Of a DNA stretch of 64,000 bases, positions 26,366 through 48,005 are shown one piece after another (positions within the stretch are counted from its first letter, which is position 1; the number at the start of each line of letters is the position of its first letter). The notes beneath the pieces are model-generated. The model saw only the letters and a program-made list of their open reading frames with translations, did no database searches and was not told the DNA's origin. The stretch lies in NCBI GenBank assembly GCA_964511075.1, contig CAZEDM010000008.1, positions 34,470-98,469 of the forward strand, written 5' to 3'. The position numbers and the translations under genes were made by a program. The stretch comes from an uncultured Ignavibacteria bacterium (GTDB lineage Bacteria > Zixibacteria > MSB-5A5 > RBG-16-43-9).

Positions 26366-27202
26366 TCACCAACCCTGTTTACTTGTCACCATCAGTTCAT
26401 TTGCCAACCTGAAGCATACTTTGTCAGGCAAGACTTGACGGAGATATTTTATGTTAACTCCCCCATCCGGAAGGGTATGGCCTATTTGGTTAACCTCTAC
26501 ACCTCTATGCCTGAGGAAGAAATTCAGATGTTGAGCCTCTTCCAGCAAGTATCTTCTGGCACTGACTCCAGTGAAGAACTTCTCAAGTTCAGTGCGGCTT
26601 TCTGTCCGCTCTATTGTTGCTAACCAGCCCTTCCCATATGGGTCCTCTTGTACCAGCTCCGGATGTTGAGCCAGTCCGGAATTTATTTGAACCAGATGTC
26701 CAGAGAGAGGGGTAGCTAAGAAAACCATTCCGGCAGAAGAGAGTATCTTTCCAAATACCTGATCCTGGGTAAGATCATTCTCCAGCTCGGAGAATTGCAA
26801 CTTAGCGGGTAGCGGAAGGACATATGCCAAAAGTTCGTCAACTCCTATTCTCCATTTCCGCCCTTCCAACGGTTGAGCCCATAGGTGAGAGGGGTGTAAA
26901 TAGACTCCTTCTCTCATCTCAACGGGCGTGAAGGTGAAAAATAGGAGGGGAGGATTTTTCCCACTTCCAGGGACGGGGCATTCTTCAGATTCTCTTAGAG
27001 ACTGAGATCTGTGCTGTTCGGCTTTTGATCGTATCTTTCTCGAACCGACATGAGAGCGCATGGCTTTGTCTAACTCACAGTGTTCACAGTCATAGTTAAT
27101 CGGACATAATTTATAGGAGATCACTCCTGCGGTCATCCAGATACAACGACCGTCCTGGTGGACAGGCTGGGCATCTTGTTTTTTTGATATATTCTTTTTC
27201 AT
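26366..27202 (-). CDS. Glycine-cleavage H-protein-like (lipoyl-domain fold) protein with N-terminal Cys4 extension; lipoyl-lysine position not conserved
   Basis: C-terminus PLSGHLVQINSGLAQHPELVQEDPYGKGWLATIE aligns with GcvH PVSGEVVEVNEAL..PELVN.DPYGEGWL. N-terminus carries C-x13-C-x5-C-x2-C. Last gene of the cytochrome/FeS/NrfD operon. Confidence 0.5.
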   Translation of the reverse strand: MKKNISKKQDAQPVHQDGRCIWMTAGVISYKLCPINYDCEHCELDKAMRSHVGSRKIRSKAEQHRSQSLRESEECPVPGSGKNPPLLFFTFTPVEMREGVYLHPSHLWAQPLEGRKWRIGVDELLAYVLPLPAKLQFSELENDLTQDQVFGKILSSAGMVFLATPLSGHLVQINSGLAQHPELVQEDPYGKGWLATIERTESRTELEKFFTGVSARRYLLEEAQHLNFFLRHRGVEVNQIGHTLPDGGVNIKYLRQVLPDKVCFRLANELMVTSKQGW

Positions 27203-27215: not shown

Positions 27216-28463
27216 TCAAAAGTTTTCCTCTGTACCTATCTCGCTATATTGTGGATATTCTCGGTGAACAGGCATACGGTTCACTATCCACCTGTAGGTT
27301 AAAATCTCAATGGTGATTATAGCCAGAACGATCAGTAATTCCTTCCAGTATATGAATACACGGTGCGGAAGTTTCCAGTTAAGGGCAATTAAGGAGACAT
27401 TGAAGCGGTTGACCGCCACTCCCAGTATGGTGAGAATGGCTGTAAACTGGGTCAGGACTACATTTCTCTTCTTCACCGCCAAGGCGAAAAGGAAACAAGG
27501 CAGAAGCACAAAGATAAAAATCTCCACCAGAAACCAGTGACCCCAAGAGGTATTCAGGAGGTTCCAGTGGTTACTGTGAGCCACGCCGATCCACTTCAGG
27601 CAGAAGTAGGCTAAGAGAACAAATGAAGCTGCTTTGCCTAAACCCAGGGTGAGGTTATCATAATTGGCGGCCTGGAGTGGATTTATCTGACTTTTGAGCG
27701 TTTTTTTGGATACCATAGCTACCACGATGATCATGGATAGTCCGGCGAAGATACTTGAAACGAAGAAAAACAGGGGGAGGAATTGTGAATACCAAAGCGG
27801 GTGAAGTTTTCCGGGGACTAAAAGAAACAGGGCGCCCAGAGCAGATTGGTGCAAGGTCGAGAGGATCACGCCGAAAATGGTGGCTCCCACGGTTATCTTC
27901 AAAGCCCACCTGCGAAATCTGTTTGCCCCAAGCCATTCGAAGATAGCAGGGCAGAACTCAACCAGCTGGGTTGAAAGATAGAGTGCCACATGCCAACCCA
28001 CCAGAAATAGAACTGAGCTTGTTCCATAGGAAACAACCATAGGATAGGGAAGCCTCCAGGGACGTCCTAAATCGAAGAGCAGAAATACTACGGCGAAGAA
28101 ATAACCCAGAAATCCGGTAAGTATAGCTGGTCGTACCAGGGGATGATAATCTTCAAGCCCGAAGATATAAACGGCTGCTGCCATGATGAAGCCGGTAGAG
28201 GCTAAGGGAACGCCGGTAAAAAGTCCCCAGTTAAGAAAAAGACTCCAGGGCTGGTCCTGTGAGGCATGGGTCACAGCCGCCAGGCCCTGGGTGAAGCGCA
28301 TGACCATAAAGGGTAGCCCTGCCAAAATAATTATTCCAGCAACAATATTGAAAGGCTTTAAAAGGTTTCTCAGGTAGTCTTTAACTGAAAGCCCCAGAAA
28401 AATCCTCTCCCTGATCCAGTTCTGGAAAACACTGGTTTTCTCAGCGTATTCGTACTCGGTCAT
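27216..28463 (-). CDS. NrfD/PsrC-family integral membrane quinone-interacting subunit
   Basis: About 10 transmembrane helices; NrfD-like motifs. Start overlaps the upstream FeS gene by 4 nt. Confidence 0.8.
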   Translation of the reverse strand: MTEYEYAEKTSVFQNWIRERIFLGLSVKDYLRNLLKPFNIVAGIIILAGLPFMVMRFTQGLAAVTHASQDQPWSLFLNWGLFTGVPLASTGFIMAAAVYIFGLEDYHPLVRPAILTGFLGYFFAVVFLLFDLGRPWRLPYPMVVSYGTSSVLFLVGWHVALYLSTQLVEFCPAIFEWLGANRFRRWALKITVGATIFGVILSTLHQSALGALFLLVPGKLHPLWYSQFLPLFFFVSSIFAGLSMIIVVAMVSKKTLKSQINPLQAANYDNLTLGLGKAASFVLLAYFCLKWIGVAHSNHWNLLNTSWGHWFLVEIFIFVLLPCFLFALAVKKRNVVLTQFTAILTILGVAVNRFNVSLIALNWKLPHRVFIYWKELLIVLAIITIEILTYRWIVNRMPVHREYPQYSEIGTEENF

Positions 28464-29389
28464 GCCTGCTCCTCCTTCCTCTCAGGGGTCCACTCCCCCT
28501 CCTTGAGCATTTGTTCCCGGTGTTTGGTGAACATGTAAAACCCGCCCAACAGGACAGGCCAGATTACCAATACAGCAGGGACCATGGTGAGAAATCCTCT
28601 GGTTAACTCTGGATAGGGCCTGGTGCCCACATCCATGGGAAACCCCAGCTTCTCAAAGGGAATTTCGGATATATATAGCCAGCTGGTTCCCCCAACTTCA
28701 CGCTCACCATAGATATGGTCAATGTATTTTTCGGGTTTGCTCCTTATCTTCTCTCTGGCTAATTTGATCAGCTCGCTCCTCCTGCCGAAGGTCAGAGCCT
28801 GAGTCGGGCAGATCTTCACACAGGCTGGACTTTCACCCTTTTTGATTATCCTCTCATAGCATAAGGTGCATTTTCTAATCCGAGGGGTGAATGGTTTATT
28901 GTATTCATAGGTTGGAATATAAAAGGGACAGGCGGTCATGCAGTAACGGCAGCCTATGCAGATATCCTTATTGTAAACCACCGCTCCCTCCGGAGTTTTC
29001 TTCAAGGCTGCTACTAAGCAGGCGGAGGCGCAAGCTGGTTCGTCACAGTGATTGCACTGTTTCTTAACATAGAAGGGCTTCTCCTCATCCCTCGGATTCG
29101 AATAGCGGTTGACCACGGTATAGCTTTCCTGGTCAGTTCTTCTCTTTTCCTCAAACACCGATTTGTCGTCAAATGTTTTTATAGGTTTATTGGGAAGTTT
29201 ATTCTGGTCCTTGCAAGCCCATTCACACTTTCGGCATCCGGTGCATAGAGGTATGTCGTGAAGCACGCCAAAGCGATCCGGGTAACCAGGAAGATTTTCC
29301 TGAGCCATGGCTTTTTTGTAACTTCCAATTAGGCTCGTGGATCCTATCGTTCCCAGAGTTTTCAGGAAACCCCTTCGATTGAGTGACAT
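28460..29389 (-). CDS. Tat-exported 4x[4Fe-4S] ferredoxin-like subunit (NrfC/PsrB/HmcB-like) with C-terminal transmembrane helix
   Basis: Twin-arginine signal NRRGFLKTLG. Four Cys clusters (CTGCRKCEWAC, CNHCDEPACASAC, CIGCRYCMTACP, CTLC...CVKICP). Confidence 0.85.
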   Translation of the reverse strand: MSLNRRGFLKTLGTIGSTSLIGSYKKAMAQENLPGYPDRFGVLHDIPLCTGCRKCEWACKDQNKLPNKPIKTFDDKSVFEEKRRTDQESYTVVNRYSNPRDEEKPFYVKKQCNHCDEPACASACLVAALKKTPEGAVVYNKDICIGCRYCMTACPFYIPTYEYNKPFTPRIRKCTLCYERIIKKGESPACVKICPTQALTFGRRSELIKLAREKIRSKPEKYIDHIYGEREVGGTSWLYISEIPFEKLGFPMDVGTRPYPELTRGFLTMVPAVLVIWPVLLGGFYMFTKHREQMLKEGEWTPERKEEQA

Positions 29390-29391
29390 GG

Positions 29392-30543
29392 TTATAATCT
29401 CCTTTCTTTGAGGGTTCCGGGGCTACTTTCAGGGTAGGCTCGGCCGTCATCGTGGCAATTTCCACAGGAGGGTTTATCCTCGAACCTTCTTTCCACATGG
29501 CACTCTGCGCAGTCCAGCTCCTGGTGGATTTCGTCCAGGACCAATCCGGTTACAGTATGATCAAAGTTCTCGGTGTTCCAATTGCTATGGCAGGAAACGC
29601 ACGCCGGTTTAAGTTTGGTTAACTTGCGCCCGGCGGGATGACAGGAGCGGCAGCTGAGAGCCTGGTGAAATCTATTCAATGGCCATCCGGTTCGAGCATG
29701 GTCAAAACCTTTCCTCTCACTCTGAGCATGACAGATGGAGCAGGTTTTCATGGTGTGACAGGTGATGCAAGGTTTGTGGTGCTCTTTGGAGGTTTTCATT
29801 GCCGGTTCAGGTTCTTCCCCTACCTCATGACAGCGAGTGCAGCTCTGCTCACTATGACAATTCACGCATTTAAGCTCAAACAGCTCCACATGATCTTTGT
29901 GATGGAAGGTTACCACCGGGCCATTGGCGTAGTTTGTATGATAGACTTTTTTGTCCGGCACGGTTATAGTTGGATGCTTTGTCCCGATAATATCGGTGGT
30001 GTCGATCTTTTGCATAGACATCTCTCCAGGTGTTTTTTTTGCATGACAGATATCGCAGGCAGTGCTGTGGCTCCATTCCCTGTGACAGTTCATACATTGA
30101 CGATGATAAGCTCCCTTGAGCCCGGGCTGACGCAGATCCTCCGGATTTAAAGGGCCACCGTGGCACTCCCTGCAGGGAGGTATGTGACCGGGAGGAGCAT
30201 AGTGGTGGCAGACTGCACATCCTTGACCCATCTCCGCCATTTCAGCATGCAGCTTATGGGCGAATATCACCGGCTTAAACAAATCCTCAAGCTGATTTAA
30301 GATAACCACCTCTGGCCCTTCTTCAGGAGTATGGGGACTCATTTTCTCGGGAAAGCGAGGACAGGACCGGAGACAAGGGTCATTTTTAGTAGGAGTAAAA
30401 CAGATATGGCAGTCACTGCAGGTTGCGTCTGCCGGGAACTCATGAGCAGGTTCGTTTTTCTCTCCCATACTGCTTGTAGAAACCAGGAGAATAAAAATAC
30501 CCGTAGCCAAGATGCTACTCATAACCATTTTGCTGAACACCAC
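29392..30543 (-). CDS. Periplasmic multihaem cytochrome c with 13 CxxCH motifs
   Basis: Signal peptide. 13 CxxCH motifs counted in 383 aa. First gene of a tightly coupled three-gene module. Confidence 0.85.
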   Translation of the reverse strand: MVFSKMVMSSILATGIFILLVSTSSMGEKNEPAHEFPADATCSDCHICFTPTKNDPCLRSCPRFPEKMSPHTPEEGPEVVILNQLEDLFKPVIFAHKLHAEMAEMGQGCAVCHHYAPPGHIPPCRECHGGPLNPEDLRQPGLKGAYHRQCMNCHREWSHSTACDICHAKKTPGEMSMQKIDTTDIIGTKHPTITVPDKKVYHTNYANGPVVTFHHKDHVELFELKCVNCHSEQSCTRCHEVGEEPEPAMKTSKEHHKPCITCHTMKTCSICHAQSERKGFDHARTGWPLNRFHQALSCRSCHPAGRKLTKLKPACVSCHSNWNTENFDHTVTGLVLDEIHQELDCAECHVERRFEDKPSCGNCHDDGRAYPESSPGTLKERRL

Positions 30544-30574: not shown

Positions 30575-31246
30575 TTATTTTATATTAAAAAACTCTCTGG
30601 CTACCTTATTCCATTGTTGTATGGTTAATTCATCCCCTAAATCAGGTTTGATCTCGCCTCCCTCCTGTAACACTGGAAATTCAGCCGGGACTAATACTGA
30701 TATTAAATGCTCTTTGGCAGCCTGATTCCAACGTTTAAGCAGTTCACCAGAAAGAAGATTTCTCAGTTCTCGAGAGAGATTAATCGGTTCAATTTTTAAA
30801 ATCCAGTTCTTTTCCGGGTCCTCACGATTCAGAAGGATTGGCTCCTCAGCCAGTTTTTTATTGACCTCCACAACCCTTCCACTAATAGGGGAGGCCTGAA
30901 CCAATTCCCTATTGTCTCTTTTTATCTTCCAGGCGCTGCTTCCCTGGTATATTCTGTCCCCACGCTTAGGCAGTTCTATCTCTTTAACCGATCCGAAAAC
31001 CGAAGAGGTGAACTTATCCATGCCAATATTCACCAGGTTAGGCTGGATCACCTCTGCCCAGGTATGGTTTGGATGTGTGAACACTCCCCTGATCATCCTG
31101 GAAGCTTCAGTCATAAATTGTCTCACCGGGCGGTAGACAGGGGTATTTAACAATCTCCAGAAAAGAATGATTATAAACATGAAGGCGATAGCTATCAGGT
31201 ACTCATTAGCTTTGGTAGCAAGTAAGAATTCTTGAAGAGTTTGCAT
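30575..31246 (-). CDS. Membrane-anchored GcvH-like (lipoyl-domain fold) protein, paralog A
   Basis: N-terminal transmembrane helix. HTWAEV...IGMDKFTSSVFGSV...PISGRVVEVNKKL...NWILKIE aligns with GcvH (HEWV...VGITD.AQ...PVSG.VV.VN..L...GWL.K). No Lys at the lipoylation position. Confidence 0.5.
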   Translation of the reverse strand: MQTLQEFLLATKANEYLIAIAFMFIIILFWRLLNTPVYRPVRQFMTEASRMIRGVFTHPNHTWAEVIQPNLVNIGMDKFTSSVFGSVKEIELPKRGDRIYQGSSAWKIKRDNRELVQASPISGRVVEVNKKLAEEPILLNREDPEKNWILKIEPINLSRELRNLLSGELLKRWNQAAKEHLISVLVPAEFPVLQEGGEIKPDLGDELTIQQWNKVAREFFNIK

Positions 31247-31312: not shown

Positions 31313-31972
31313 TTAATCCGTTGAGTCAAAAAACTCCCGGTTGACCTTCTCCCACTGTTCGGAGGTTAATTCGTTCCCCAGGTCAGATTTAATTTCCCCG
31401 CCCTCCTGCAGGACAGGAAATTCTGCCGTGGTCAAAGTAGCTACGAGCTGATCCTTAACCGCCTGATTCCAGCGCTTCAGGATGGTTCCGTGTAGCAGGT
31501 TCTGGAGCTCTCCTTTCATTCTATCCGGTCTGATTTTTAATATCCAATTCCTTTCAGTATCCTTCTGGGTTAAAAGCTTAGGATTATCCGCCAGCTCCTG
31601 GTTTAAAGCCACCACCGTGCCGCTAATGGGTGAAGTCTGAGTCAACTCTCGGTTTCCCCTTCTTAATAACCAGGCTTTTTCTCCCTGATGAATCCGGCTT
31701 CCCACAGGAGGAAGAGATAACGCCTCGACTGAGCCGAAAACTGATGTGGTGAAATCGTCCACTCCCACTGTAATTAAACTGGGATCGAGAACCCTGACCC
31801 AAGCATGACCTGGGTGCACGAAAATTCCCTCTAAGGCGGAGGGGAGCTTCAACTTGGTGGTCAAGGGGGTTTTCTCTTCTGCTGGGGCAACGGCCTTTCT
31901 TTGACGCCAGATACCAATTCCTATGGCTAAAGCCACGAAAAGTAAAATAAGGATTACCGACATTTCAATCAC
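31313..31972 (-). CDS. Membrane-anchored GcvH-like protein, paralog B (tandem duplicate of 30575-31246)
   Basis: About 45% identical to paralog A by eye. HAWVRV...VGVDDFTTSVFGSV...PISGTVVALNQEL...NWILKIR. Confidence 0.5.
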   Translation of the reverse strand: MIEMSVILILLFVALAIGIGIWRQRKAVAPAEEKTPLTTKLKLPSALEGIFVHPGHAWVRVLDPSLITVGVDDFTTSVFGSVEALSLPPVGSRIHQGEKAWLLRRGNRELTQTSPISGTVVALNQELADNPKLLTQKDTERNWILKIRPDRMKGELQNLLHGTILKRWNQAVKDQLVATLTTAEFPVLQEGGEIKSDLGNELTSEQWEKVNREFFDSTD

Positions 31973-32094: not shown

Positions 32095-32687
32095 TTTTGC
32101 TCACCTGACCTTTCTATTAGAAAGGAACACTTGTCTGTACTCATTGTAAATAAGGGCAAATAGAGTGCCGCAAAACCTACCATCTAAGATGGTATCTGCT
32201 AAGTCCCAGAATCATATGAGATTATCGTACAATGTATATAAGGAAAGTTAGAATTATTCAAAATTTTTAGCGCAAGCACGTTGAAAATTTCTACAGAGTA
32301 TTTGAGGTTGAATGTTGGATTATTAGTAATTACAGTGCTGTCAATATCTTAGTAATTGTAGAGAAATTCAACATCAAGTGGCGTTTATTTCCACATTTTT
32401 CTTTTATTTAACTATAGTATCAAAAAATTACTCATCCTTAGTCAGAGATCAAGGCATTAAAAAAATTGTTGCTGAGGTCAAACACGGTTTTCTTACAAAT
32501 TGATAAATTAGATCTATGTGATATTAATTGATTCTCTAAGTGGAAGAAAAGAAAAGAATTACGAGGAGGAGAATTTCGAATTGACTTCTCAATTTTCATT
32601 ATTTTTTTTCTTATTTTTTTAAAAAAAAGCTTGACATTATGATATCCGTCATATAAAATAAGATGAATGAGATATGGTTAATCAATT

Positions 32688-32705
32688 TTGTGAAAAAAAT
32701 CACAA
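32688..32705. promoter_or_regulatory. Candidate Rex operator TTGTGAAAAAAATCACAA
   Basis: TGTGA-N6-TCACA matches the Rex operator consensus (TTGTGAA-N4-TTCACAA) with one half-site mismatch. 82 bp upstream of the 32787 start. A possible -35/-10 pair (TTGACA ... TATAAA/ATAAAA, spacing ambiguous at 15-16 nt) lies at 32630-32660. Confidence 0.5.
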
Positions 32706-32786
32706 TCTCATATAAGGAGGTGGTAATCAACAAAATCAGATTTCTGTAGAGAACAAAATACGCCTGAACCCTAAGGAGGAAAGAAT

Positions 32787-35438
32787 ATGAGTAATAGAAA
32801 AAGGATTTTGATTGTTACCTGCTTTTTGATTTTTATGGGCTTTCAATTATCTTCAGCCGCATCTCCCGTGGCTAAAATAAGGCTTTTGGCTTATTCAGAA
32901 AGAGACCTTGCCCTTGATACCACTTTGACAAGAACTTCGACCGGGTTGCCTAATGTAGGTGTTGGGAGTATGGTTTATTTTACTGCTAATCCTGAGGAGC
33001 CCGGTGCTTATACTTATACCTGGACTCTTAGCACCCCTCTTGGTTCCTCCACCACCCTGAGCGATGATGCTATACAGAATCCTACTATGGTTCCGGATTT
33101 GGAGGGAACTTATATAGTTACTCTGGTGATAGCAGATACCTCTGGAACAAGCGATCCTGATACGATGTATATCAGTGCCGGAACCTGGGTGGGCACAGGG
33201 CAAATAGGCGGGATGACCCCGCATTGGCCCCAGTGTGGCTTCTTCTGCCATAATGATAAGATCGCCGAATGGGAGGAAACCGGACACGCTGTTATCTTTC
33301 AGCAAGGTTTAGACGGGATAGCCAGTAGCCACTATGGTTCAAGTTGTATCAGCTGTCACACGGTTGGATATGATACAGACCCGGCCGCAGATAATTTCGG
33401 CTTTGATGATGTGGCAACATTATTAGGCTGGACCTTCCCGGATACTCTATTTCCTGGTCAGTTTGATTCCCTGGTAATCAATTATCCGGATTTAGCTAAC
33501 TTGGGAAATATCCAGTGTGAGAACTGTCATGGTCCGGGTAGCAGGCACGGCGGAGAGGACAGATGGAACAGGATTGCGGTTAGCTATGGATCCGGGGTCT
33601 GTGCCTATTGTCATGACTCAGGCACTCATCATATAAAACCTTATCAGTGGGATTATTCCAGGCATCCATTTGCAGTAGGGGAACATGATCACATGAACCG
33701 AACTTCCTGCTCCAGATGTCATACTGCTCAGGGTTATATAGACGAGACCATAAACGGAGGTTCCTCCGGTGCACCTTATAAGTACGCGGAGGGTGTAACC
33801 TGTAGCGCCTGCCATGACCCTCACAGCGATGCCAATGAGTATCAGCTCAGGAGAGCAGAGGTTTACGGTGTTTGTTACGACTGTCATACGCTAAGAGTCA
33901 GCAGTCACGGGATCCATCATTCGCACCAATCCGATATGTTAGAAGGAAACAGCGGATACGAGTACCCAGGAGAGCTGTATCCGGTTGGGAGTCATACTTA
34001 CACAACCGAGAAATGCGTGGGATGTCATATGGCAACATCTCCTGCGGATAGCCTGGTCACCAAGGTGGGCGAGCATACCTTTGCGGTCTTCTCAGACAAC
34101 GGGACTCCGGACGACTCTACTGATGACATCCTGAATGATGAGGGGTGCAAGGGATGTCATGGCAGTGTAAGCCTGGTTTTCCTCAGGAAAAGTCAGGAGA
34201 AATTTGTGAATCTACTTGATTCGCTGGCAGCTTTACTTCCCAAGGATGGAAGTGGTGAGGTCATTAGCCATACGGAAGATGATCTTCTGACCCTGACTGA
34301 AATAGGAGGAGCTTACAACTACTATTTTGTGCTGGATGACGGAAGTTATGGCACACACAACCCCAGATATGCGGAAAAACTCTTATGGGATTCCATTAAG
34401 AGGTTAGTAGCTCAGATGCATGCCGGGGACATAGTGGAGATATCGGATGTGCCTAATGATCAGGGCAAACAGGTGAGGATCCTCTGGAATATGTTTGCCG
34501 GCGAGGACGATGTCGATCATCCGGTCACTCAATATGGGATCTGGCGAAGAGATGAGTCCTCTACCGCAAAAGCTTTGACTGGGAAGGTGAATACCTTCAA
34601 GGAGTTGCTCTCCTACTATCCTAACATAGAAGCCGGAGCTACCTTCTCGGTGGCAGGGACGATCTGGACTTTCTTGGGCTCAATCCCGGCCTCCCATCAT
34701 GAGCGTTATGGTTATGTAGCTCCTACTCTTTTTGACTCCACCATTGTTTCCGGAATGCAGTGGTCAGTTTTCTACGTATCCGGTCATACGGCTGACCCTG
34801 GCATCTTCTACGAGTCCTACCCGGATAGCGGATATTCAGTGGACAACCTGGTTCCCGCTCCTCCCACCGGCCTGGCAGCTATTATTCAGGGGCGGAATGT
34901 CCAGTTGAGCTGGGATGACTCTTCGGATCCTGATTTTGACTACTTTGCCGTCTATAGAAGCACTACCCCGGGATTTACCCCCTCTCCGGCTAACCGTATA
35001 GGCTATAGTTCCAATCCCGAGTATGTGGACTCCAATTTAGTTAATGGAACTCATTATTATAAATTAACCGCCACCGATTTCTCTGGAAACGAAGGAGGTC
35101 CATCGCTTGAGCTTCCGATTAACATCACCTCAGTCAGGGAGGAAGAGGGAGCTGTGCCCAAGGTGTTTGCCCTGTTCCAGAACTATCCCAATCCCTTCAA
35201 CCCGTATACTCAGATCAAATTCTCCGTGGCTAATAGAACTAAGGTGGGACTCTCGGTTTACAATATCCTGGGACAGAGGGTGAAAACTCTACTGGATGAA
35301 GAGATGGAAGCAGGGAATTATGTGGCTACTTGGGACGGAAAGGATGAGAAAGGATATGATGTCTCCAGCGGAATCTATTTCTACAAACTGAATACCAAGG
35401 AGTTCACCCAGACCAAAAAGATGCTTCTGGTCAGATAG
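32787..35438 (+). CDS. Secreted multihaem cytochrome c (8 CxxCH + 1 CX3CH) with fibronectin-III domain and T9SS-type C-terminal sorting domain
   Basis: Signal peptide. Haem motifs include CGFFCH. FN3-like PAPPTGL...LSWDDSSD...YRS. C-terminus FALFQNYPNPFNP.T.I.F......VGLSVYNILGQRV..L.........WDGKDEKG..VSSGIYFYKL......TKKMLLV is the Por/T9SS CTD pattern. Confidence 0.85.
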   Translation: MSNRKRILIVTCFLIFMGFQLSSAASPVAKIRLLAYSERDLALDTTLTRTSTGLPNVGVGSMVYFTANPEEPGAYTYTWTLSTPLGSSTTLSDDAIQNPTMVPDLEGTYIVTLVIADTSGTSDPDTMYISAGTWVGTGQIGGMTPHWPQCGFFCHNDKIAEWEETGHAVIFQQGLDGIASSHYGSSCISCHTVGYDTDPAADNFGFDDVATLLGWTFPDTLFPGQFDSLVINYPDLANLGNIQCENCHGPGSRHGGEDRWNRIAVSYGSGVCAYCHDSGTHHIKPYQWDYSRHPFAVGEHDHMNRTSCSRCHTAQGYIDETINGGSSGAPYKYAEGVTCSACHDPHSDANEYQLRRAEVYGVCYDCHTLRVSSHGIHHSHQSDMLEGNSGYEYPGELYPVGSHTYTTEKCVGCHMATSPADSLVTKVGEHTFAVFSDNGTPDDSTDDILNDEGCKGCHGSVSLVFLRKSQEKFVNLLDSLAALLPKDGSGEVISHTEDDLLTLTEIGGAYNYYFVLDDGSYGTHNPRYAEKLLWDSIKRLVAQMHAGDIVEISDVPNDQGKQVRILWNMFAGEDDVDHPVTQYGIWRRDESSTAKALTGKVNTFKELLSYYPNIEAGATFSVAGTIWTFLGSIPASHHERYGYVAPTLFDSTIVSGMQWSVFYVSGHTADPGIFYESYPDSGYSVDNLVPAPPTGLAAIIQGRNVQLSWDDSSDPDFDYFAVYRSTTPGFTPSPANRIGYSSNPEYVDSNLVNGTHYYKLTATDFSGNEGGPSLELPINITSVREEEGAVPKVFALFQNYPNPFNPYTQIKFSVANRTKVGLSVYNILGQRVKTLLDEEMEAGNYVATWDGKDEKGYDVSSGIYFYKLNTKEFTQTKKMLLVR

Positions 35439-35460: not shown

Positions 35461-35497
35461 AAAACCGACCCTGGCCTTCACATGGGTCGGTTTTCTT
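35461..35497 (+). terminator. Rho-independent terminator after the T9SS cytochrome gene
   Basis: AAAACCGACCC-loop-GGGTCGGTTTTCTTAT. Confidence 0.5.
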
Positions 35498-35849
35498 ATA
35501 GCTTAGAGATCGTGATTAAAAGAGTGAAGAATCTGCAAAGGAGTCCTTCATAAGAAGAAAATCCAGGTATTTCAGCAAAGGGAAGTATTTATCCTTCTCA
35601 TATTTTCAGGAGATGTTGACGAGTTGACATACGTGGGGAATAATTTTTGTTTTTCCAGTAAACAGTTCCAAGATGCTTTTGCATTGGAGACTTCGGGATC
35701 TGAATGAATTTGAGGAATCAATTTGTTACAATCTTTGAAAATATAAGGAGAGTTTTTTCTTGACATCTTTGGTCTTGTTTACCATTCTATTGTAGGTTTT
35801 TAGATTAAGCATTTTTGAAAAGAGTGATTTCTGAAAAAGGGAAAGCCGA

Positions 35850-37163
35850 GTGAAGAAAAAGATATTTTTCCTGGGAACAGCAACCCTGATTATCTTAGGA
35901 TTATTCGGATGCACTAAAAATAAATTTAAACCTACCAGTTCACAGCCTATAGATATCCCCTACTATAATTCAGCTAATGATTCCTGTTTTGTCTGCCATA
36001 ACGACCCATCTTTAAAAAAGACCATCGGAGCAGAGACGGTCCCGCTTTATGTTGACCGTGAGAGATTCGCCCGCTCCATTCACCGGGCTAATCGATGTCT
36101 GGATTGCCATACGGACATAGTTTTCTATAAAGGGCATTCCGAGGCGGTGAAGACCTATGGGGGCTGGGCAAATTTCAGCGCCGAGGATACCAGCCAGACC
36201 AGAAATTATCACACCAGCGCCTCCATCTCCTGTGGTAACTGTCATACAGATCAATCAGGTTTCTTCTCAAGTCAGCATTATCTGATCGAGGATATTAAGC
36301 AGTCTCGCCAGGAGACTCACGATGGTATGGAGATAGGCAAGGATTATGATGAGGCCAAGTGTGGTAAATGCCATCTTACCTGTGCCACCTGTCATTTTAA
36401 AGGTGAGAGAGTTCAACAGAATTTTGGAGAGATAACTGATTATTGGAGTCAATTATTAACAGGCAATCAGGTTCCAGGAGCAGATGAGATGACCGACTGG
36501 TCGATCGACTGGACCACCAACATTGAATCGCACGATTTTGCTAAAGCTGAGGATCTAGAAGGTTCGAATGATTTGTGCCGGGTATGTCACACAGGTTATT
36601 ATACCCAGTACGGGGTCCGTGGATTCCCGAACTCAGATACGCTGGTTCACGATATGATAACCAGCCAGGGGGTGGTGAAATATCCTCAATATGAGGAGTG
36701 GAGCTTTCTAAAAGGTGATATTAGTGTAATGACAGGGGTTTCTTATTTAGATTCGATATATGCACGAATGGGAAATTCAGACCATTACTCTCGGAAATGC
36801 ATCGACTGTCATGATAAAATTCATTCCTTAACGCCCATCACTTGCTTGAAGTGTCATGCTGATAAGGTAATTCCGAAGGGCAGAGAGCATTCTGATGTGG
36901 GTTGTGAGGCTTGTCACGATGCTACGATGAAGCCGTTCAGAGTAAACTATTCAGTATTCCCCCGGGCTGACACCGTGAGAGCAGCAGCAATTAAAGATAA
37001 TAAAGTCATAGATTGGCGCTCCCATATGATTGTTGATCCGAGGAATACGTTAGGAGTTCCTGATTTCTGTATCTATAAATGCCATAATCCGGTGGGGCAA
37101 GGTACGGTTGGTGCTCCCAAGAACTTTGAGATAATGGAAATTCATGATCAAGATGATAAATGA
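35850..37163 (+). CDS. Multihaem cytochrome c lipoprotein (9 CxxCH + 1 CX3CH)
   Basis: GTG start. Lipobox LFGC. Motifs CFVCH, CLDCH, CGNCH, CGKCH, CATCH, CRVCH, CIDCH, CLKCH, CEACH, CIYKCH. Confidence 0.85.
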   Translation: MKKKIFFLGTATLIILGLFGCTKNKFKPTSSQPIDIPYYNSANDSCFVCHNDPSLKKTIGAETVPLYVDRERFARSIHRANRCLDCHTDIVFYKGHSEAVKTYGGWANFSAEDTSQTRNYHTSASISCGNCHTDQSGFFSSQHYLIEDIKQSRQETHDGMEIGKDYDEAKCGKCHLTCATCHFKGERVQQNFGEITDYWSQLLTGNQVPGADEMTDWSIDWTTNIESHDFAKAEDLEGSNDLCRVCHTGYYTQYGVRGFPNSDTLVHDMITSQGVVKYPQYEEWSFLKGDISVMTGVSYLDSIYARMGNSDHYSRKCIDCHDKIHSLTPITCLKCHADKVIPKGREHSDVGCEACHDATMKPFRVNYSVFPRADTVRAAAIKDNKVIDWRSHMIVDPRNTLGVPDFCIYKCHNPVGQGTVGAPKNFEIMEIHDQDDK

Positions 37164-37169
37164 GGAGAG

Positions 37170-38394
37170 AATGAAGCGAAAGGTCATTTTAGTTCTAAGT
37201 TTATTGAGCCTCTTTATTTTCAAGAATGGTCAGGCTGTTGAGCTTAAAGCCAACATCTCCACCTGCTTTAACTCCTATCAGACTCAGGACCTTTATACTG
37301 AGGAGAAGACCTCTTACCTCAGAGCTTATCAGAGTTTCAGGTTTGATTTAACAGAATTGGGAACAAAAGACCTGTCCTTTCACACTTATTTTCGCTCCAC
37401 TACAGATCTTCTCCATGAGAATTCCACTGATCCCTCCACAAAAATTTATAACGCCTATCTCAACTGGAAAAATATCAAGAAGGTATTAGATTTAAGATTA
37501 GGCAGGCAGTTTCTGTATGCGGGAGTGGGGAATGCGACTATGGACGGTTTGAGATTGGATCTCAAACCCAAGCAAAAGCTTCAGCTGACCGCATATGCGG
37601 GGTTTCAACTTCCCCGGTATAAATGGACCAAAATAGATACCTGGGAGAAAAGCCATATTTTCGGCGGCGAGATATCAACCACATATCTGAAAAATACCAG
37701 ATTGGCTGTAAGCTATGTTCAGAAAGAAAGAGAGAAGGCTTTGGAGGAGCATTTGATCGGGATCAATGCCGCTCACCTTTATAAAAAACTTGATTTCTAC
37801 AGCCAGTTTTATTATAACCTGGTTTACAAGAAAGTTCAGAACTTAACCTTGAGAGGAGCCTGCTCAAGGCTTTGGGATAAACTCTACCTCTCACTGGAAT
37901 ATCAATTCCGCAGACCCAGCATATACTCCAACTCTATCTTCAGCGTTTTCAAACAGGAGAGTTATTCCATTTTCAGGTTCTCAGGCTCCTATCAGCTATT
38001 GAGAGATCTCAGATTCTCTTCGGAGTATGATCTGACCCTCTACGAGTCGGATAACTCCGCTCGCACAAGACTGGGGATAGAATATGCCTTTATAGGTCTG
38101 GGAGTTAATTTCAGAAGAGGATACGGCGGGGAGAACAATGGGGTTTATGGGAAACTGGTGTATTCCCTTAAGAGGAATTTAATCTTGTCAGCCTGTGCTG
38201 ATTACGGCAAGTACAAGCTGGATGAGGAACAGGAAAGCACAGACGAGTCGTTCATACTTTCCTCGAGACTGGAATGGGAGCCCTTGAGAAACTTCAGGTT
38301 TGCACTGGAGCTTCAGGATTTAAGGAATAAAGTCAAAAGCTACGACTTCAGATTCCAGGGAAGGGCAAGCTATAGATTCGGGCTTTCATTTTAA
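37170..38394 (+). CDS. Putative outer-membrane beta-barrel protein (porin-like component of a porin-cytochrome conduit)
   Basis: Signal peptide (MKRKVILVLSLLSLFIFKNGQA). Alternating amphipathic beta-strand pattern. C-terminal ...YRFGLSF ends in Phe. GAGGAG ribosome-binding site 4 nt before the ATG at 37170 (the longest ORF would start at 37144). Confidence 0.55.
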
Positions 38395-38440
38395 GATTCG
38401 GGGAAGGGATTTGTAGAACAGGACATAAAAAGGAAATGGG

Positions 38441-39493
38441 ATGAGATTTTCAGGCAGAGTTTTCATAGGAACACTTCTGACCATGGTGTTCAGCTGGATA
38501 ATGTTCTCAGCGCTTTTCGCCAGCTTGGAGATACCCAAAAGCGACATCATATTTTCGCATAAGAAACACTCAGACCAGCCCTGCACCAACTGCCACCCTC
38601 AGATAGAGGAGAGTGATAAAGCCGGCGATAAAAACCTTCCCTCTATGGATATCTGCACCGAATGCCATGATGGCGAGATGTTGCCGGGCGAATGTTCGGT
38701 CTGCCATAGAGATAAGGAGAACCCCCAGGCACTGGTCAACCCCCAGAGGGATTTTATCTTCTCTCACCAGAAACATCTGCAGAGGAAAACAGAGTGTTCT
38801 TTCTGTCATGGTGACGTGAGCAATAAGGATAAGCTGGATTCCGGGAATATGCCGGATATGGGGAAATGCTACCAATGTCATGAGGGGTTCAAAGCACCAA
38901 ATAACTGCGAGCTCTGTCATACGGAGATGAATTTGAGAAAATATCACCCGGATGACTGGCAACACGCCCACCAATTTCAGGCGGAAATTAAAAAGGAGAA
39001 GTGCATCCAGTGTCACCAGAAGGAGGACCTCTGTCAGAAATGTCATCAGGGAGATAACCTGCTTCAAACCACTCATCCGCTGAACTATTATTATACTCAC
39101 GGACTGGATGCCAAATCCAAAGAAAAGGATTGTCTGTCCTGTCATCTCACCAAGGAGTTCTGCGATAACTGTCATTCCCAAGAAGGTGGAAAACCTTTGA
39201 ACCATTCTATCCCGGGCTGGGGTTTTTCTGGAAAACATGGAGAGTTTGCCAGAAAAGATATGGAATCATGCGCTTCCTGTCACGATACGGCTGACCCTAT
39301 CTGCACCTGGTGTCACCAGGATAAGAATCCCGGCAGAGGGAATGACCATAATATCCACCCTGCGGGTTTTGCCTCCAGTTTGGATAAAGGACCCTGGCAT
39401 GAGGACGAGGGGTATTTCTGCTACGAGTGTCATACTAAAGGACTTAAAGCAGGAGAAGGGTTCTGCGGATATTGCCATGGAGACGGAGATTAA
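38441..39493 (+). CDS. Multihaem cytochrome c with 14 CxxCH motifs
   Basis: N-terminal signal/anchor. 14 CxxCH in 350 aa, many preceded by distal-His FSH.KH segments (c3/c7-like repeats). Confidence 0.85.
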   Translation: MRFSGRVFIGTLLTMVFSWIMFSALFASLEIPKSDIIFSHKKHSDQPCTNCHPQIEESDKAGDKNLPSMDICTECHDGEMLPGECSVCHRDKENPQALVNPQRDFIFSHQKHLQRKTECSFCHGDVSNKDKLDSGNMPDMGKCYQCHEGFKAPNNCELCHTEMNLRKYHPDDWQHAHQFQAEIKKEKCIQCHQKEDLCQKCHQGDNLLQTTHPLNYYYTHGLDAKSKEKDCLSCHLTKEFCDNCHSQEGGKPLNHSIPGWGFSGKHGEFARKDMESCASCHDTADPICTWCHQDKNPGRGNDHNIHPAGFASSLDKGPWHEDEGYFCYECHTKGLKAGEGFCGYCHGDGD

Positions 39494-39601
39494 CCCAGAA
39501 GTTTTTTCACTTGACATAATCTCTTATTTTAGATATAATCAGAACTAAAATTGTCTTTTTTGTGAAGAAAATAACAAGTATCACAAAAGAGAGATTGATT
39601 G

Positions 39602-40054
39602 ATGGCTGAAGAAGGCGAAAAGAAAATCTCCAGGCGGTCTTTTCTGGACCGTCTTATAGTCGGCTCTATGTTCGTATCTGCCTTAGCAGTGCTTGGCTCA
39701 GTTTTGACCTATATTTACCCGCCGAAGAAAGAGGGTGGGGCAGAAAGAGCAGAGAGGGTTGAGGTTGCCTCTTTAGCTGATCTACCTGTTGGCAAAGCCA
39801 AGCCGGTGGTATATCAGAACAAAAATGTCATGGTGATGCACGTGCAGGCTGGGCTTTTTGCCGTGAGTATGAAATGCACTCACCTGGGGTGTATGGTGGA
39901 ATGGGAGGAAGGTCCTCAGACCTTGAAATGTCCCTGCCATGCCGCCTTTTTCGACTATCAGGGAAAGGTGATCTCTGGCCCTGCACCCAAGCCCCTCCCC
40001 GCCTATAAGGTAGAGGTGGCAAATGATATCATATACGTTACCGGATTAGCCTAA
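39602..40054 (+). CDS. petA: Rieske [2Fe-2S] subunit of a cytochrome bc-type complex
   Basis: Tat-like SRRSFLDRL plus transmembrane helix. Rieske boxes CTHLGC and CPCH. Confidence 0.85.
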   Translation: MAEEGEKKISRRSFLDRLIVGSMFVSALAVLGSVLTYIYPPKKEGGAERAERVEVASLADLPVGKAKPVVYQNKNVMVMHVQAGLFAVSMKCTHLGCMVEWEEGPQTLKCPCHAAFFDYQGKVISGPAPKPLPAYKVEVANDIIYVTGLA

Positions 40055-40056
40055 GG

Positions 40057-40800
40057 ATGGATGAGAAGGGAAAAAAGATAGGTCCGAAACTCAAACGCTG
40101 GACTGAGGAGAGATTCAACCTCAGGCAGTTGGTGGGTGTTCTTTTAAATATATTCCCGGTGATCTATGGGGAATTAGATCAGAGATTAGACGTAAAAGAG
40201 GGGTTGCAAAAACTACTCAAGAAGCCGGTACCCAAGGGGTTAAGCTTTCTGCATTGTTTCGGGGGAATGACCTTTCTTCTGTTTGTGATTCAGGTCTTTA
40301 CCGGTATACTTTTAGCCATATATTATAAACCTTCAGCTGCAGATGCCTACACCAGCGTCAAATACATCACCGATACAGTGCCCCTGGGCTGGCTGATAAG
40401 GCAGATCCATGCCTGGGGTGCGAATCTGATGGTAATCACCATGTTCGTACATATGCTGAGGGTGTATTTTCATGGTGCCTTTAAAAATCCCAGGGAGCTG
40501 AACTGGATGGTGGGGACGGTTTTGTTTATACTCACCTTAGCTTTTGGATTTACCGGCTATCTTCTTCCCTGGGATCAGAGGTCCTACTGGGGTACAACCA
40601 TAGGGACTGAGGTAGCAGGCGGTGTTCCCTTTATCGGTAAATATCTTCTGATTATCCTGAGAGGCAGCCTCAACGTGACCGGTGATACTTTAACCCGGTT
40701 TTATTCTGTGCATGTCCTTATACTTCCCTGGGTGACAGCTCTTTTTCTGGCGCTTCATTTCGCCATGGTGAAAAGGCAGGGGGTTGCCAAACCTCTGTAA
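40057..40800 (+). CDS. petB: Cytochrome b6-like subunit (N-terminal half of split cytochrome b)
   Basis: Four-helix cytochrome b N-terminal pattern with conserved His pairs (RQIHAWGANLMV...FVHMLRVYFHGAF; GYLLPWDQ.S.W). Confidence 0.8.
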   Translation: MDEKGKKIGPKLKRWTEERFNLRQLVGVLLNIFPVIYGELDQRLDVKEGLQKLLKKPVPKGLSFLHCFGGMTFLLFVIQVFTGILLAIYYKPSAADAYTSVKYITDTVPLGWLIRQIHAWGANLMVITMFVHMLRVYFHGAFKNPRELNWMVGTVLFILTLAFGFTGYLLPWDQRSYWGTTIGTEVAGGVPFIGKYLLIILRGSLNVTGDTLTRFYSVHVLILPWVTALFLALHFAMVKRQGVAKPL

Positions 40801-40837
40801 AAATAGTGAGAAGTTAAAGGGAATACGAAGGGATAAG

Positions 40838-41326
40838 ATGGAAGCAGAGAAAGAGAAGAAAAACAATGAGGGGATGGAAGAGGGAAAGCCTTTTTATCCT
40901 AATCATTTCCTGAAGGAAGTTATCGTAGCTTTCCTTCTTTTTGGGGTTCTCCTAAGCTTAGCTGTTTTTTTCCCCTTTCCTTTTCATGAGAAAGCTAATC
41001 CCTTTCAAACCCCTGAGGGGATCAAGCCGGAATGGTATTTTCTGGCTGGGTATCAGATGTTGAAATATGTGCCTAAGGTGGTGGGGATTGTGGGGATAGG
41101 AATTGTGATGGTTATTCTTTTTATAGTTCCCTTCCTTGAAAGAAGTCCAGAACGTCATCCTTCGAAAAGGAGATTTGCCCGAGCGATTGGTGTGGTGGTG
41201 ATAATTTTCGCTGTCCTCTTTTCACTCTTGGGCTATCTATCTGAATCGACTCAGACTGTTTTGGGAAAGAAATATCATTTCGATCTAAAAGGGGTTCCCT
41301 ATAAAGTTGAGGAGCCAAAAAAATAG
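40838..41326 (+). CDS. petD: Subunit IV-like protein (C-terminal half of split cytochrome b)
   Basis: PEWYFLAGYQMLKYVPK matches the cytochrome b C-terminal/subunit IV PEWY motif. Three transmembrane helices. Start placed at the ATG after the petB stop. Confidence 0.7.
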   Translation: MEAEKEKKNNEGMEEGKPFYPNHFLKEVIVAFLLFGVLLSLAVFFPFPFHEKANPFQTPEGIKPEWYFLAGYQMLKYVPKVVGIVGIGIVMVILFIVPFLERSPERHPSKRRFARAIGVVVIIFAVLFSLLGYLSESTQTVLGKKYHFDLKGVPYKVEEPKK

Positions 41327-42583
41327 ATGAGAAGGGACATTTTTAGAAAAATCAGCCTGCTGGTAATAACCGTTTTTTTCTTCTATAGGCCTGTCCTTCC
41401 CCAGGACATTGAATCGTATTCCTGTATGGTCTGTCACGGTGAAAAGAAGGTGGAATATCTGAAGAGCATCCATTGGGAGAAGGAGATGTGGTGCGCTGAT
41501 TGTCATGGTGGAGACCCTTCCAGCCTGGATCCAGAGGTTTCCATGTCAGCTAGGGCCGGGTTCAAGGGAAGGTTTACCAAAAAAGAGGTGGTTTACCTGT
41601 GCGGAAATTGTCACGCGGACAAAAAAAGGATGAGACAATACGGGATATCCACTGATCAGTTAGATTATTACCGTACGAGTGAGCATGGAATAGCTCTTCT
41701 TAAAAAGAACGATCCGAGTGTGGCTGGATGCGTGGACTGCCATGGTAGCCACAGCATTACCTCCGTGAAAGACCCGGAGAACAAGGTTTTCCCCACTAAT
41801 CTTCCCCAGACTTGCGCCATGTGCCATTCGGACAAAAAACTCATGGAGAAATATGGTCTGCCTTACAATACCTTAGAGGAATATGTCTCAAGCGTTCACG
41901 GTAAGGCGCTTTTGGAGAAAAACGACAGGTCAGCTCCTACCTGTGCAGGTTGTCACAGTAGCCATGGTGCAGCTCCTCCTGGTGTTACAGAGATAGAGAA
42001 TGTGTGCGGGAAATGCCATATCAATTCAGAGACGAATTTCGCCAAGAGCCCACATCTGGAGGCTATGAGGAAGATGAATCTGTCACAGTGCGCCTCCTGC
42101 CACCAGCATCACTCTATTAAATATCCAGATATATCCATGTTCGATCAGGTATGTTCAAATTGCCACGAGCCCGGATCAGGCGCCTATAAGAGAGGACAGC
42201 AGATAAAAGCTCTGATCCTGGAGGCACAGGACCAGATACAGAAGGCAAAGGAGTTAATCCAGAAGGGCAAATCCAGGGGACTGGATGTCTCTCAGTTCGA
42301 GCCTGAATTGGAACAAGCCAATACCGCCATGTTGCAGGTTCTGCCAGTAACTCACAGTCTGGTCCTCTCTAAGGTCGAGGAGATAACCAGCAGCGCCAGA
42401 ACCTTAGCCGGAGAGATATCCGCTTCCGTTCACAACTATCTGGAATCATTACGCCTGAGAAAGGTGGGGTTAGGGATTGTCTGGCTTTTTATCTTTTTCG
42501 TGGTGGTGATATTGTATATAAAGGTGAAGAGGGCAGATAGTGAATTCGAATTAGCTCAGCAAAAAAATAAAGGAAAAGACTGA
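41327..42583 (+). CDS. Membrane-anchored 9-haem cytochrome c, the likely c-type subunit of the bc complex
   Basis: Nine CxxCH. C-terminal transmembrane helix LGIVWLFIFFVVVILYI. Start abuts the petD stop. Confidence 0.8.
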   Translation: MRRDIFRKISLLVITVFFFYRPVLPQDIESYSCMVCHGEKKVEYLKSIHWEKEMWCADCHGGDPSSLDPEVSMSARAGFKGRFTKKEVVYLCGNCHADKKRMRQYGISTDQLDYYRTSEHGIALLKKNDPSVAGCVDCHGSHSITSVKDPENKVFPTNLPQTCAMCHSDKKLMEKYGLPYNTLEEYVSSVHGKALLEKNDRSAPTCAGCHSSHGAAPPGVTEIENVCGKCHINSETNFAKSPHLEAMRKMNLSQCASCHQHHSIKYPDISMFDQVCSNCHEPGSGAYKRGQQIKALILEAQDQIQKAKELIQKGKSRGLDVSQFEPELEQANTAMLQVLPVTHSLVLSKVEEITSSARTLAGEISASVHNYLESLRLRKVGLGIVWLFIFFVVVILYIKVKRADSEFELAQQKNKGKD

Positions 42584-42608
42584 GTTCTCAACAGAGGTGT
42601 CCATTTAG

Positions 42609-42647
42609 TAAAACCGATGCCTTTTCACCGAGGTGTCGGTTTTATTC
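42609..42647 (+). terminator. Possible rho-independent terminator (stem with two G.U pairs, then a T-run)
   Basis: AAACCGATGCC-loop-GGTGTCGGTTTTATT. Confidence 0.35.
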
Positions 42648-42670
42648 CGTTAGTTTAGAAGGGTGCGGAG

Positions 42671-47932: not shown

Positions 47933-47933
47933 C

Positions 47934-48005
47934 TGAGGGTGGATGGGATCGAACCATCGGCCACCTGCTTAAAAGGCAGATGCTCTACCACTGAGCTACA
48001 CCCCC
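47934..48005 (-). tRNA. tRNA-Lys (anticodon TTT)
   Basis: Manually folded. Acceptor GGGGGTG/CACCCTC, D-arm GCTC-AGTGGTA-GAGC, anticodon arm TCTGC-CTTTTAA-GCAGG (positions 34-36 = TTT), T-arm GATGG-TTCGATC-CCATC, discriminator A. No encoded CCA. Confidence 0.85.

Follow-up and report, generated by a model that had tools for sequence, protein, structure and literature searches.

A nonahaem cytochrome with a predicted type IX secretion domain and a Rex-like operator, a candidate outermost module of extracellular electron transfer in Zixibacteria

How do bacteria of the Fibrobacteres-Chlorobi-Bacteroidetes (FCB) group, in which NCBI taxonomy includes the Zixibacteria, place the cytochromes of extracellular electron transfer (EET) outside the cell? 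The known routes to the surface are lipoproteins exported by type II secretion in Shewanella, filaments in Geobacter, and the cell wall or S-layer in Gram-positive bacteria. The question is raised by a stretch of 64,000 nucleotides (hereafter the window) from contig CAZEDM010000008.1 of an uncultured bacterium of the Zixibacteria lineage, which encodes a multihaem cytochrome of 883 amino acids (positions 32787-35438, + strand) ending in a C-terminal domain (CTD) of the kind that a type IX secretion system (T9SS) recognizes, and preceded by a palindrome that resembles the operator of the redox-sensing regulator Rex. We consider it reasonably probable, though well short of certain, that this protein is a T9SS-exported, Rex-controlled nonahaem electron-transfer protein that forms the outermost module of EET.

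The initial annotation, made without database searches, had read this open reading frame (ORF) as an 883-residue cytochrome with eight CXXCH motifs and the sequence CGFFCH, and the ORF and motif scan and the alignment of the family bear this out. CGFFCH is a CX3CH site (C150/C154-H155). The alignment of 33 family members from several phyla shows nine conserved C(X2-3)CH sites in the same order; only eight are counted in 4 of the 33 aligned sequences, so that the first site of these four is not a plain CX2-3CH, and among the remaining aligned homologues haem site 1 alternates between CXXCH and CX3CH. CGFFCH is considered a genuine ninth haem site because the same position is occupied by a plain CXXCH in many homologues. 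Beyond the haem motifs, seven further His are invariant in the 33-sequence alignment, an eighth is nearly so, and M415 is invariant; these are candidate ligands, the coordination pattern of OcwA-like nonahaem cytochromes being two five-coordinate haems and one haem with His/Met ligation.

An AlphaFold model of the cytochrome, with the 33-sequence alignment as input, has a mean pLDDT of 80.5 and, together with profile matches, divides the protein as follows, all on the + strand: a Sec signal peptide (residues 1-24, 32787-32858; MSNRKRILIVTCFLIFMGFQLSSA/AS), called by inspection of its basic n-region, hydrophobic core and SSA/AS junction and by a modelled helix at residues 2-23; an N-terminal PKD/Ig-like beta-sandwich (residues 31-132, 32877-33182) of modelled beta strands, for which Pfam matches to PKD are under threshold and the profile of alignment A1 matches a KIAA0319-like PKD chain (E 3e-7); a nonahaem domain resembling OcwA (residues 150-545, 33234-34421) that ends in a three-helix bundle (residues 463-544); a second, conserved beta-sandwich of unknown family (residues 549-690, 34431-34856; model strands) that bears a DVPNDQG motif, in which D554, P556, D558, G560 and W567 are invariant in the 33 sequences, and which has neither a Pfam match nor a PDB sequence match; an FN3 domain (residues 697-780, 34875-35126; profile evidence), present as first annotated; a linker of low model confidence (residues 783-789); and the T9SS type-A CTD (residues 796-883, 35172-35435). 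A ribosome-binding site, AAGGAGG (32773-32779), lies 7 nt 5' of the ATG, and a terminator-like hairpin (35471-35490) with a T-run (the whole at 35471-35500, + strand) begins 33 nt past the stop codon. Because of this hairpin, and because the next gene has a separate promoter-like site (35616-35644), the cytochrome gene is probably monocistronic.

The C-terminus had been described as a textbook T9SS CTD, and the two curated models agree: over residues 800-880 of 883 the match to TIGR04183 reaches 39.5 bits against a cut-off of 23, and that to PF18962 (Por_Secre_tail) 33.1 bits against a cut-off of 27. The model of this region is a seven-strand sandwich (strands at residues 796-797, 808-814, 818-825, 831-840, 843-849, 862-870 and 874-881). 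The motif QNxPNPFNP, G829 and G862 are invariant in the CTDs of the 33 aligned sequences from several phyla, and both the (K/R)(K/R)M motif of the last strand and the terminal K or R are strongly conserved, K877 being K or R in 32 of the 33 sequences and K878 in 31. Mutagenesis of Porphyromonas gingivalis CTDs has identified two essential elements (PMC11285876), a beta3-beta4 loop with a Gly that starts beta4 and a motif at the C-terminus whose conserved Lys lies in beta7. Both are found in the cytochrome, where G829 is placed by the model in the beta3-beta4 loop immediately ahead of beta4.

Por_Secre_tail, FlgD_ig or both are matched at the C-terminus of 116 of the 120 best homologues, many of which NCBI has already named automatically as T9SS type A sorting domain-containing proteins. 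The same domain is also the ending of dozens of large FCB proteins that are unrelated to one another, some of them encoded on four Zixibacteria chromosomes (L008, L012, L025 and L079); when genome contigs were searched with the profile of alignment A1, the generic QN[YFH]PNPFN motif dominated, yielding mostly unrelated CTD cargo and a single full-length relative (L001). Because it terminates so many unrelated FCB proteins, the domain behaves as a sorting tag, and the cytochrome is accordingly predicted from its sequence to be secreted or surface-attached via T9SS. Haem attachment is periplasmic, and the cargo must therefore cross the outer membrane in a folded state; T9SS is able to move folded cargo through that membrane.

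The architecture of signal peptide, PKD, nonahaem domain, beta-sandwich, FN3 and CTD is shared by over 2000 proteins from the FCB phyla; among named homologues the best are those of Zixibacteria (72-78% identity). The closest solved structures of the haem domain are OcwA of Thermincola potens (6I5B) and an undecahaem S-layer cytochrome of Carboxydothermus (6QVM), both surface cytochromes of metal reducers; similarity to OcwA is significant in sequence and in fold, with the C-terminal three-helix bundle included. OcwA was described as a globular haem domain with a three-helix bundle, two haems of open coordination, and weak activity with nitrite and hydroxylamine. A 2021 study placed it in a subclade of nonahaem cytochromes from Gram-negative bacteria whose function was unknown, and the family described here is probably part of it.

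Haem proteins of other kinds also have T9SS-type ends: a Calditrichaeota protein of 962 amino acids (L100, 13983-16871) combines CXXCH, CBM9 and an EB_dh haem domain with Por_Secre_tail, and a 521-residue multihaem cytochrome of Ignavibacteriales (L099, 13139-14704) has a weak FlgD_ig match. The redox cargo of T9SS may thus be diverse.

Control of the gene by Rex was the other proposal of the initial annotation, which reported a near-consensus Rex box upstream of the cytochrome and rex itself in the same window with a box of its own; both stand. The box TTGTGAAAAAAATCACAA (32688-32705, + strand) has one mismatch to the Rex consensus TTGTGAANNNNTTCACAA and lies 81 nt 5' of the ATG. It is 29 nt past the -10 hexamer of a predicted sigma-70-type promoter (32631-32659, + strand; TTGACA-17-TAAAAT, 11 of 12 matches) whose layout is the same in the aligned leader of the relative L081; with a transcription start inferred at approximately 32666, the box occupies about +23 to +40 of the predicted transcript. 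The rex gene (61058-61684, + strand) encodes a protein of 208 amino acids with winged-helix and Rossmann domains (PF06971, Put_DNA-bind_N; PF02629, CoA_binding), a QVRKDLS helix and a VGVGNVG motif. The region ahead of it (61007-61053, + strand) contains a TTGACA-17-TAAAAT promoter (61007-61035) and, beginning directly 3' of this promoter-like site and lying over the predicted start site, the Rex box ATGTGAAAGGATTCACAA (61036-61053). A third, weaker Rex-like box, TTGTGAAGAAAATAACAA (39560-39577), follows the perfect promoter TTGACA-17-TATAAT (39511-39539) of an operon that begins with a Rieske protein gene (promoter and box together at 39511-39577, + strand); its right half-site, ATAACAA, recurs as the same variant ahead of the cytochrome orthologues of L087 and L094, and no such box is conserved at the Rieske promoter of L081. 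All three boxes are intergenic, directly 5' of genes and just 3' of near-consensus TTGACA-17-TA(A/T)AAT promoters. Two sites with at most one mismatch are observed in the window where 0.03 are expected, and three with at most two mismatches where 0.29 are expected; neither count was reached in any of 100 shuffles.

Conservation of the box was examined in 13 orthologous loci of the Zixibacteria type, in which the cytochrome is 71-85% identical in protein sequence. A Rex-like box precedes the orthologue in 11 of the 13, in two leader contexts. The window-type leader, with TTGTGAAAAAA(A/G)T(C/A)ACAA about 90-100 nt 5' of the ATG, is found in L081, L093, L087 and a remnant in L094, and the box is the longest invariant block in its alignment; the second type, with T(A/G)GTGAA-W4-TTCACAT about 20-25 nt 5' of the ATG, is found in L083-L088 and L096, with a degenerate version in L094. 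Across 133 kb of orthologous loci, 15 sites with at most two mismatches are observed against approximately 0.6 expected at the rate of the window, and all 15 precede either the orthologue of the T9SS cytochrome or a gene of 647 codons in which an 11-haem cytochrome is fused to cytochrome b. Among the 10 distinct variants of the site, G3-T4-G5-A6-A7, T13 and A15-C16-A17 are invariant and the spacer is A/T-rich, which is the pattern of the Rex consensus TTGTGAAW4TTCACAA (PMC2883068).

The box of the fusion gene (11-haem, Ni_hydr_CYTB), T(A/G)GTGAAATTATTCACAT, lies about 30 nt 5' of it in L083 (8185), L085 (7302), L087 (14864) and L096 (9011), and the next gene encodes a 17-haem cytochrome; the predicted Rex regulon of these relatives therefore covers several multihaem operons. 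In L094 (Zixibacteria metagenome-assembled genome GCA_030692185.1), positions ~245-400 hold a window-type leader with its Rex-like box, Shine-Dalgarno (SD) sequence and ATG joined in the same reading frame to the final ~25 codons of a CTD (...IYFYKLISKDFTETKKMLLIR*), directly 5' of the intact orthologue, which has the second type of leader; by its sequence, it appears to be what a deletion has left of a tandem paralogue.

The leader of the cytochrome gene contains one further conserved element, the SD-like block AAGGAGGTGG (32714-32723, + strand), of which GGAGGTG is invariant in alignment A3. Blocks of the form (A/G)AGGAGGTG(G/A) lie 55-130 nt 5' of the real ribosome-binding site in leaders of Zixibacteria (L081, L093, L094 and L087), KSB1 (L098) and Calditrichaeota (L100); a standby site and a pause site are possibilities. 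An upstream ORF following the block was rejected, as neither a start codon nor a frame is conserved, and an RNA element in the leader was likewise rejected, as there is no Rfam match and the leader folds like its shuffles (z = -0.33).

The surroundings of the cytochrome gene are rich in multihaem proteins. Immediately 3', on the + strand, lie genes for a lipoprotein-type cytochrome with nine CXXCH motifs and an LFGC lipobox (35850-37163), which has as its own the promoter-like site mentioned above; an outer-membrane beta-barrel of 407 amino acids with a C-terminal Phe (37171-38394), modelled with 22 strands at a pLDDT of 89.4; and a 14-haem cytochrome anchored at its N-terminus (38441-39493). 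Over its N-terminal ~150 residues, the 14-haem protein resembles ActA (6F0K_A, E 5e-9), which is the pentahaem, membrane-anchored subunit of alternative complex III; this resemblance suggests an inner-membrane-anchored wire spanning the periplasm rather than a soluble carrier. There follow, again on the + strand, an operon for a Rieske protein, cytochrome b, a petD-like protein, a 9-haem cytochrome and a 17-haem NapC-like cytochrome (39599-44677), and genes for CcmE and CcmF, which function in periplasmic haem attachment (44905-47451). Divergent from the cytochrome gene is a module of an NrfD-like protein, a 4Fe-4S protein and a 13-haem c3-type cytochrome (27216-30543, - strand), and this side also holds two membrane proteins resembling GcvH. 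In all, three membrane-anchored GCV_H paralogues flank the NrfD/4Fe-4S/13-haem cluster (26366-27202, 30575-31246 and 31313-31972, - strand); a tandem pair also adjoins the 13-haem gene in L081, unusual company for a domain that resembles a lipoyl carrier.

These associations recur in relatives. All of the neighbouring genes are present in L081 (83% identity), in rearranged order; the lipoprotein cytochrome and the barrel are 3' of the orthologue in L093; the KSB1 locus L098 (41% identity) has a divergent NrfD/FeS/cytochrome module on one side and, on the opposite side, a homologue of the barrel accompanied by two cytochromes; near the orthologue in L001 (35% identity) are genes for a barrel-like protein and a 12-haem cytochrome; and in loci of Ignavibacteriales and Calditrichaeota the orthologue stands among multihaem cytochromes, where some other haem proteins have CTDs. 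By analogy, the arrangement of barrel and cytochromes is predicted to work like a porin-cytochrome conduit.

These features suggest the following sequence of events, each step of which is drawn from sequence, homology, synteny or the behaviour of the protein families concerned. The apoprotein would be exported by Sec by means of its signal peptide; the Ccm system encoded 9 kb downstream would attach nine haems in the periplasm; and the type-A CTD would be recognized by T9SS, which would carry the folded holoprotein across the outer membrane, after which the CTD would be cleaved off and the protein either released or attached to the cell surface, with the PKD, beta-sandwich and FN3 spacers holding the OcwA-like haem domain outward. 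Electrons would be supplied by quinol-oxidizing modules (NrfD/FeS/13-haem and Rieske/cytochrome b/multihaem) to the predicted conduit of 14-haem cytochrome, 22-strand barrel and lipoprotein cytochrome, and from this to the nonahaem protein, which would hand them to insoluble or other extracellular acceptors. At low NADH/NAD+, Rex bound at +23 to +40 would block transcription; limitation of the acceptor would raise NADH, release Rex and induce the cytochrome. Rex would also repress its own gene and, probably, the Rieske/cytochrome b operon.

Several observations weigh against this interpretation. With respect to export, the cytochrome is the only CTD-bearing ORF within the 64-kb window, and no T9SS component was matched in the 33 window ORFs scanned with Pfam and NCBIfam models, scans that were not aimed at T9SS and that covered all but 16 of the window ORFs. 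In the FCB loci that were fetched, none of the PorU candidates (ORFs of 900-1500 amino acids with weak CTD matches) was matched, no lineage-wide search having been made, nor was an ORF of 1717 amino acids tried as a SprA candidate. T9SS is reported from Bacteroidota and probably from Chlorobiota, Ignavibacteriota, Rhodothermota, Gemmatimonadota, Cloacimonadota and Fibrobacterota; Zixibacteria are not among the phyla that the literature names as hosts. The C-terminus of the cytochrome also matches PF13860 (FlgD_ig) at 31.5 bits (cut-off 27), near its Por_Secre_tail score. As for the conduit, the barrel has no Pfam match, its Foldseek hits are generic outer-membrane porins and ushers only, and no similarity to MtrB, PioB or OmbB was found, nor any of the ActA-like 14-haem cytochrome to MtrA or OmaB; because the barrel lacks detectable homology to MtrB and OmbB, the arrangement is not classed in those families.

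With respect to regulation, two of the 13 Zixibacteria-type loci (L082 and L095) have no Rex box, and no Rex-like site was found at the orthologues in KSB1, Ignavibacteriales, Calditrichaeota and L001, where the neighbouring regulators at the loci of those other phyla are Rrf2 and Fur; because the box is absent from these phyla, Rex control is considered a feature of this Zixibacteria lineage and not of the whole family. The position of the box is also awkward, at about +23 in the window and, for the second type of leader, about 200 nt from a candidate upstream promoter. Because the box is 3' of the predicted start site, Rex would have to act as a roadblock.

The haem domain raises the question of whether the protein reduces solids at all. 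It might instead be a secreted or surface enzyme of the NrfA/octahaem nitrite reductase/MccA superfamily that acts on soluble nitrite, hydroxylamine, sulfite or tetrathionate. The profile also matches NrfA, octahaem nitrite reductases and MccA (E 1e-10 to 1e-3). In OcwA two haems are five-coordinate and nitrite is slowly reduced, so that some catalytic role is conceivable here. We nevertheless judge such an enzyme unlikely: all nine sites are C(X2-3)CH, with no CXXCK catalytic motif; the further His, seven of them invariant and one nearly so, could together with the invariant Met provide a distal ligand for each of the nine haems; small soluble anions do not require that the enzyme be exported; and what the conserved neighbours encode is a conduit of barrel and multihaem proteins instead of partners such as NrfH or NrfBCD.

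The palindrome, in turn, might be the operator of a CRP/FNR-family regulator, in which case the cytochrome would answer to oxygen, NO, CO or cAMP and not to NADH/NAD+. A perfect copy of the CRP-type consensus, TGTGA-N6-TCACA, lies within TTGTGAAAAAAATCACAA, and because the two types of site overlap by construction, a pattern match alone is unable to tell Rex from CRP. The relatives are more informative: the second type of leader keeps GTGAA-N4-TTCAC and turns TGTGA into AGTGA or GGTGA, so that the CRP core is broken and the Rex core intact, which argues against a CRP/FNR-type regulator. The same motif lies over the predicted start site of rex, as is typical of Rex autoregulation, and among the 33 window ORFs that were scanned, all but 16 of those in the window, no CRP/FNR-family model was matched. 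Control by CRP or FNR is thus improbable, and Rex remains the preferred regulator.

Nor does the sequence itself set the direction of electron flow. In principle a multihaem conduit can run either way, as in the Mto and Pio systems, and the surface cytochrome might draw electrons inward from Fe(II), minerals, cathodes or partner cells. We regard uptake as quite improbable, since derepression at high NADH would suit the disposal of electrons rather than their acquisition, and the closest characterized relatives are reductases of metal-reducing bacteria. Finally, that the C-terminal module is a structural FlgD-type Ig domain unrelated to T9SS, with the cytochrome periplasmic or brought to the outer membrane by another route, is suggested by the similar FlgD_ig score, by NCBI names of some homologues ("FlgD immunoglobulin-like domain containing protein") and by the negative T9SS scans and the absence of Zixibacteria from the documented hosts described above, but is very improbable given that the domain always lies at the extreme C-terminus after a flexible linker, bears the type-A motifs with the Gly and Lys determinants, and ends dozens of unrelated FCB proteins in the pattern of a sorting signal.

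Other genes of the window are of separate interest. Three encode proteins with a type I dockerin (9733-11394, 15386-16897 and 17125-18666): DUF362 with dockerin, an SBBP beta-propeller with dockerin, and a 513-residue protein with an internal dockerin; the relative L095 has a protein with PKD and dockerin (18483-22343). Their sequences suggest a second surface display system, of cohesin-dockerin type, in this non-cellulolytic lineage. Additional redox genes (50302-51732, - strand; 53657-55663) encode a c554-like cytochrome with five CXXCH motifs and a membrane protein with CCG, 4Fe-4S and NarI-like domains. A single tRNA gene, tRNA-Lys(UUU), is present in the window (47933-48006).

Comparison with characterized systems indicates which parts of the locus are familiar. 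OcwA and the undecahaem protein of Carboxydothermus ferrireducens (6QVM), the nearest relatives, belong to monoderm Firmicutes, where they are located in the cell wall or S-layer (OcwA being a nonahaem cell-surface terminal reductase), and they lack PKD, FN3 and T9SS domains; the present cytochrome, whose function in a diderm is a predicted one, differs from them also in having CX3CH as its first haem site. The MtrC/OmcA-MtrAB system of Shewanella and the OmaB-OmbB-OmcB system of Geobacter follow the same logic as the triad at 35850-39493, namely a periplasmic multihaem cytochrome, an outer-membrane barrel and a lipoprotein cytochrome on the outer side, to which other surface cytochromes are added. 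Type II secretion exports the lipoproteins MtrC and OmcA, whereas the cytochrome described here has a T9SS tag and a fold like that of OcwA and NrfA, not of the MtrC type; the barrel differs from MtrB and OmbB in its 22 predicted strands and its lack of detectable homology.

Established T9SS cargo, such as RgpB and other gingipains, the Flavobacterium chitinase, and carbohydrate-active enzymes of Cytophaga, Fibrobacter and Melioribacter, shares with the cytochrome a Sec signal, Ig or FN3 spacers, a seven-strand CTD, a Gly before beta4 and a basic last strand, and Por CTDs on carbohydrate-active enzymes outside Bacteroidota have been noted since 2013; in contrast to known type-A cargo, the protein here is a redox protein loaded with cofactors and not a hydrolase or adhesin. 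The Rex regulons of Streptomyces, Staphylococcus, Bacillus and Clostridia share the 18-bp TTGTGAA-W4-TTCACAA operator, autoregulation of rex and targets in respiration and redox balancing. Unlike in these Gram-positive regulons, the targets here are EET cytochromes in an FCB bacterium, and the putative operators are 3' of the predicted start sites, some of them beside the ribosome-binding site.

The components are thus known singly (T9SS CTDs, OcwA-type cytochromes, Rex operators and porin-cytochrome logic), and their combination is absent from the searchable literature. In the openly searchable literature no paper connects T9SS with multihaem cytochromes or EET, "type IX" and "extracellular electron" occurring together in a few papers by mere coincidence of mention; a 2024 review of T9SS contains no occurrence of "cytochrome", and a 2024 survey of outer-membrane multihaem cytochromes contains no occurrence of "secretion", Zixibacteria, Ignavibacteri-, KSB1 or Calditrich-. 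The description of this route as uncommon for EET proteins is therefore accurate for the literature, which holds no paper connecting T9SS and cytochromes, but not for nature, in which there are more than 2000 homologues.

A wider proposal, which we find attractive but on present evidence doubtful, is that across Zixibacteria, KSB1, Ignavibacteria, Calditrichaeota, Rhodothermales and Bacteroidota T9SS serves as a dedicated export route for EET cytochromes, the nonahaem protein being linked covalently to surface lipopolysaccharide after PorU-type processing to give a conductive coat rich in haem and connected to a new type of conduit of 22-strand barrel and cytochromes and, in Zixibacteria, switched by Rex. 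If the interpretation is correct, FCB bacteria that are common in sediments, aquifers and bioreactors, a large and environmentally abundant set, export folded, haem-loaded cytochromes by T9SS, and these proteins would constitute a new class of T9SS cargo; layers of cytochrome anchored in lipopolysaccharide would be suggested as a surface architecture; expression would be tied to cellular NADH/NAD+ through Rex, a regulator studied mostly in Gram-positive bacteria; and the combination of multiple haem motifs with a CTD would be a simple sequence marker for electroactive members of uncultured phyla. The locus thus offers a testable answer to the question of how FCB bacteria place EET cytochromes outside the cell, with the unexpected addition of control by NADH sensing.

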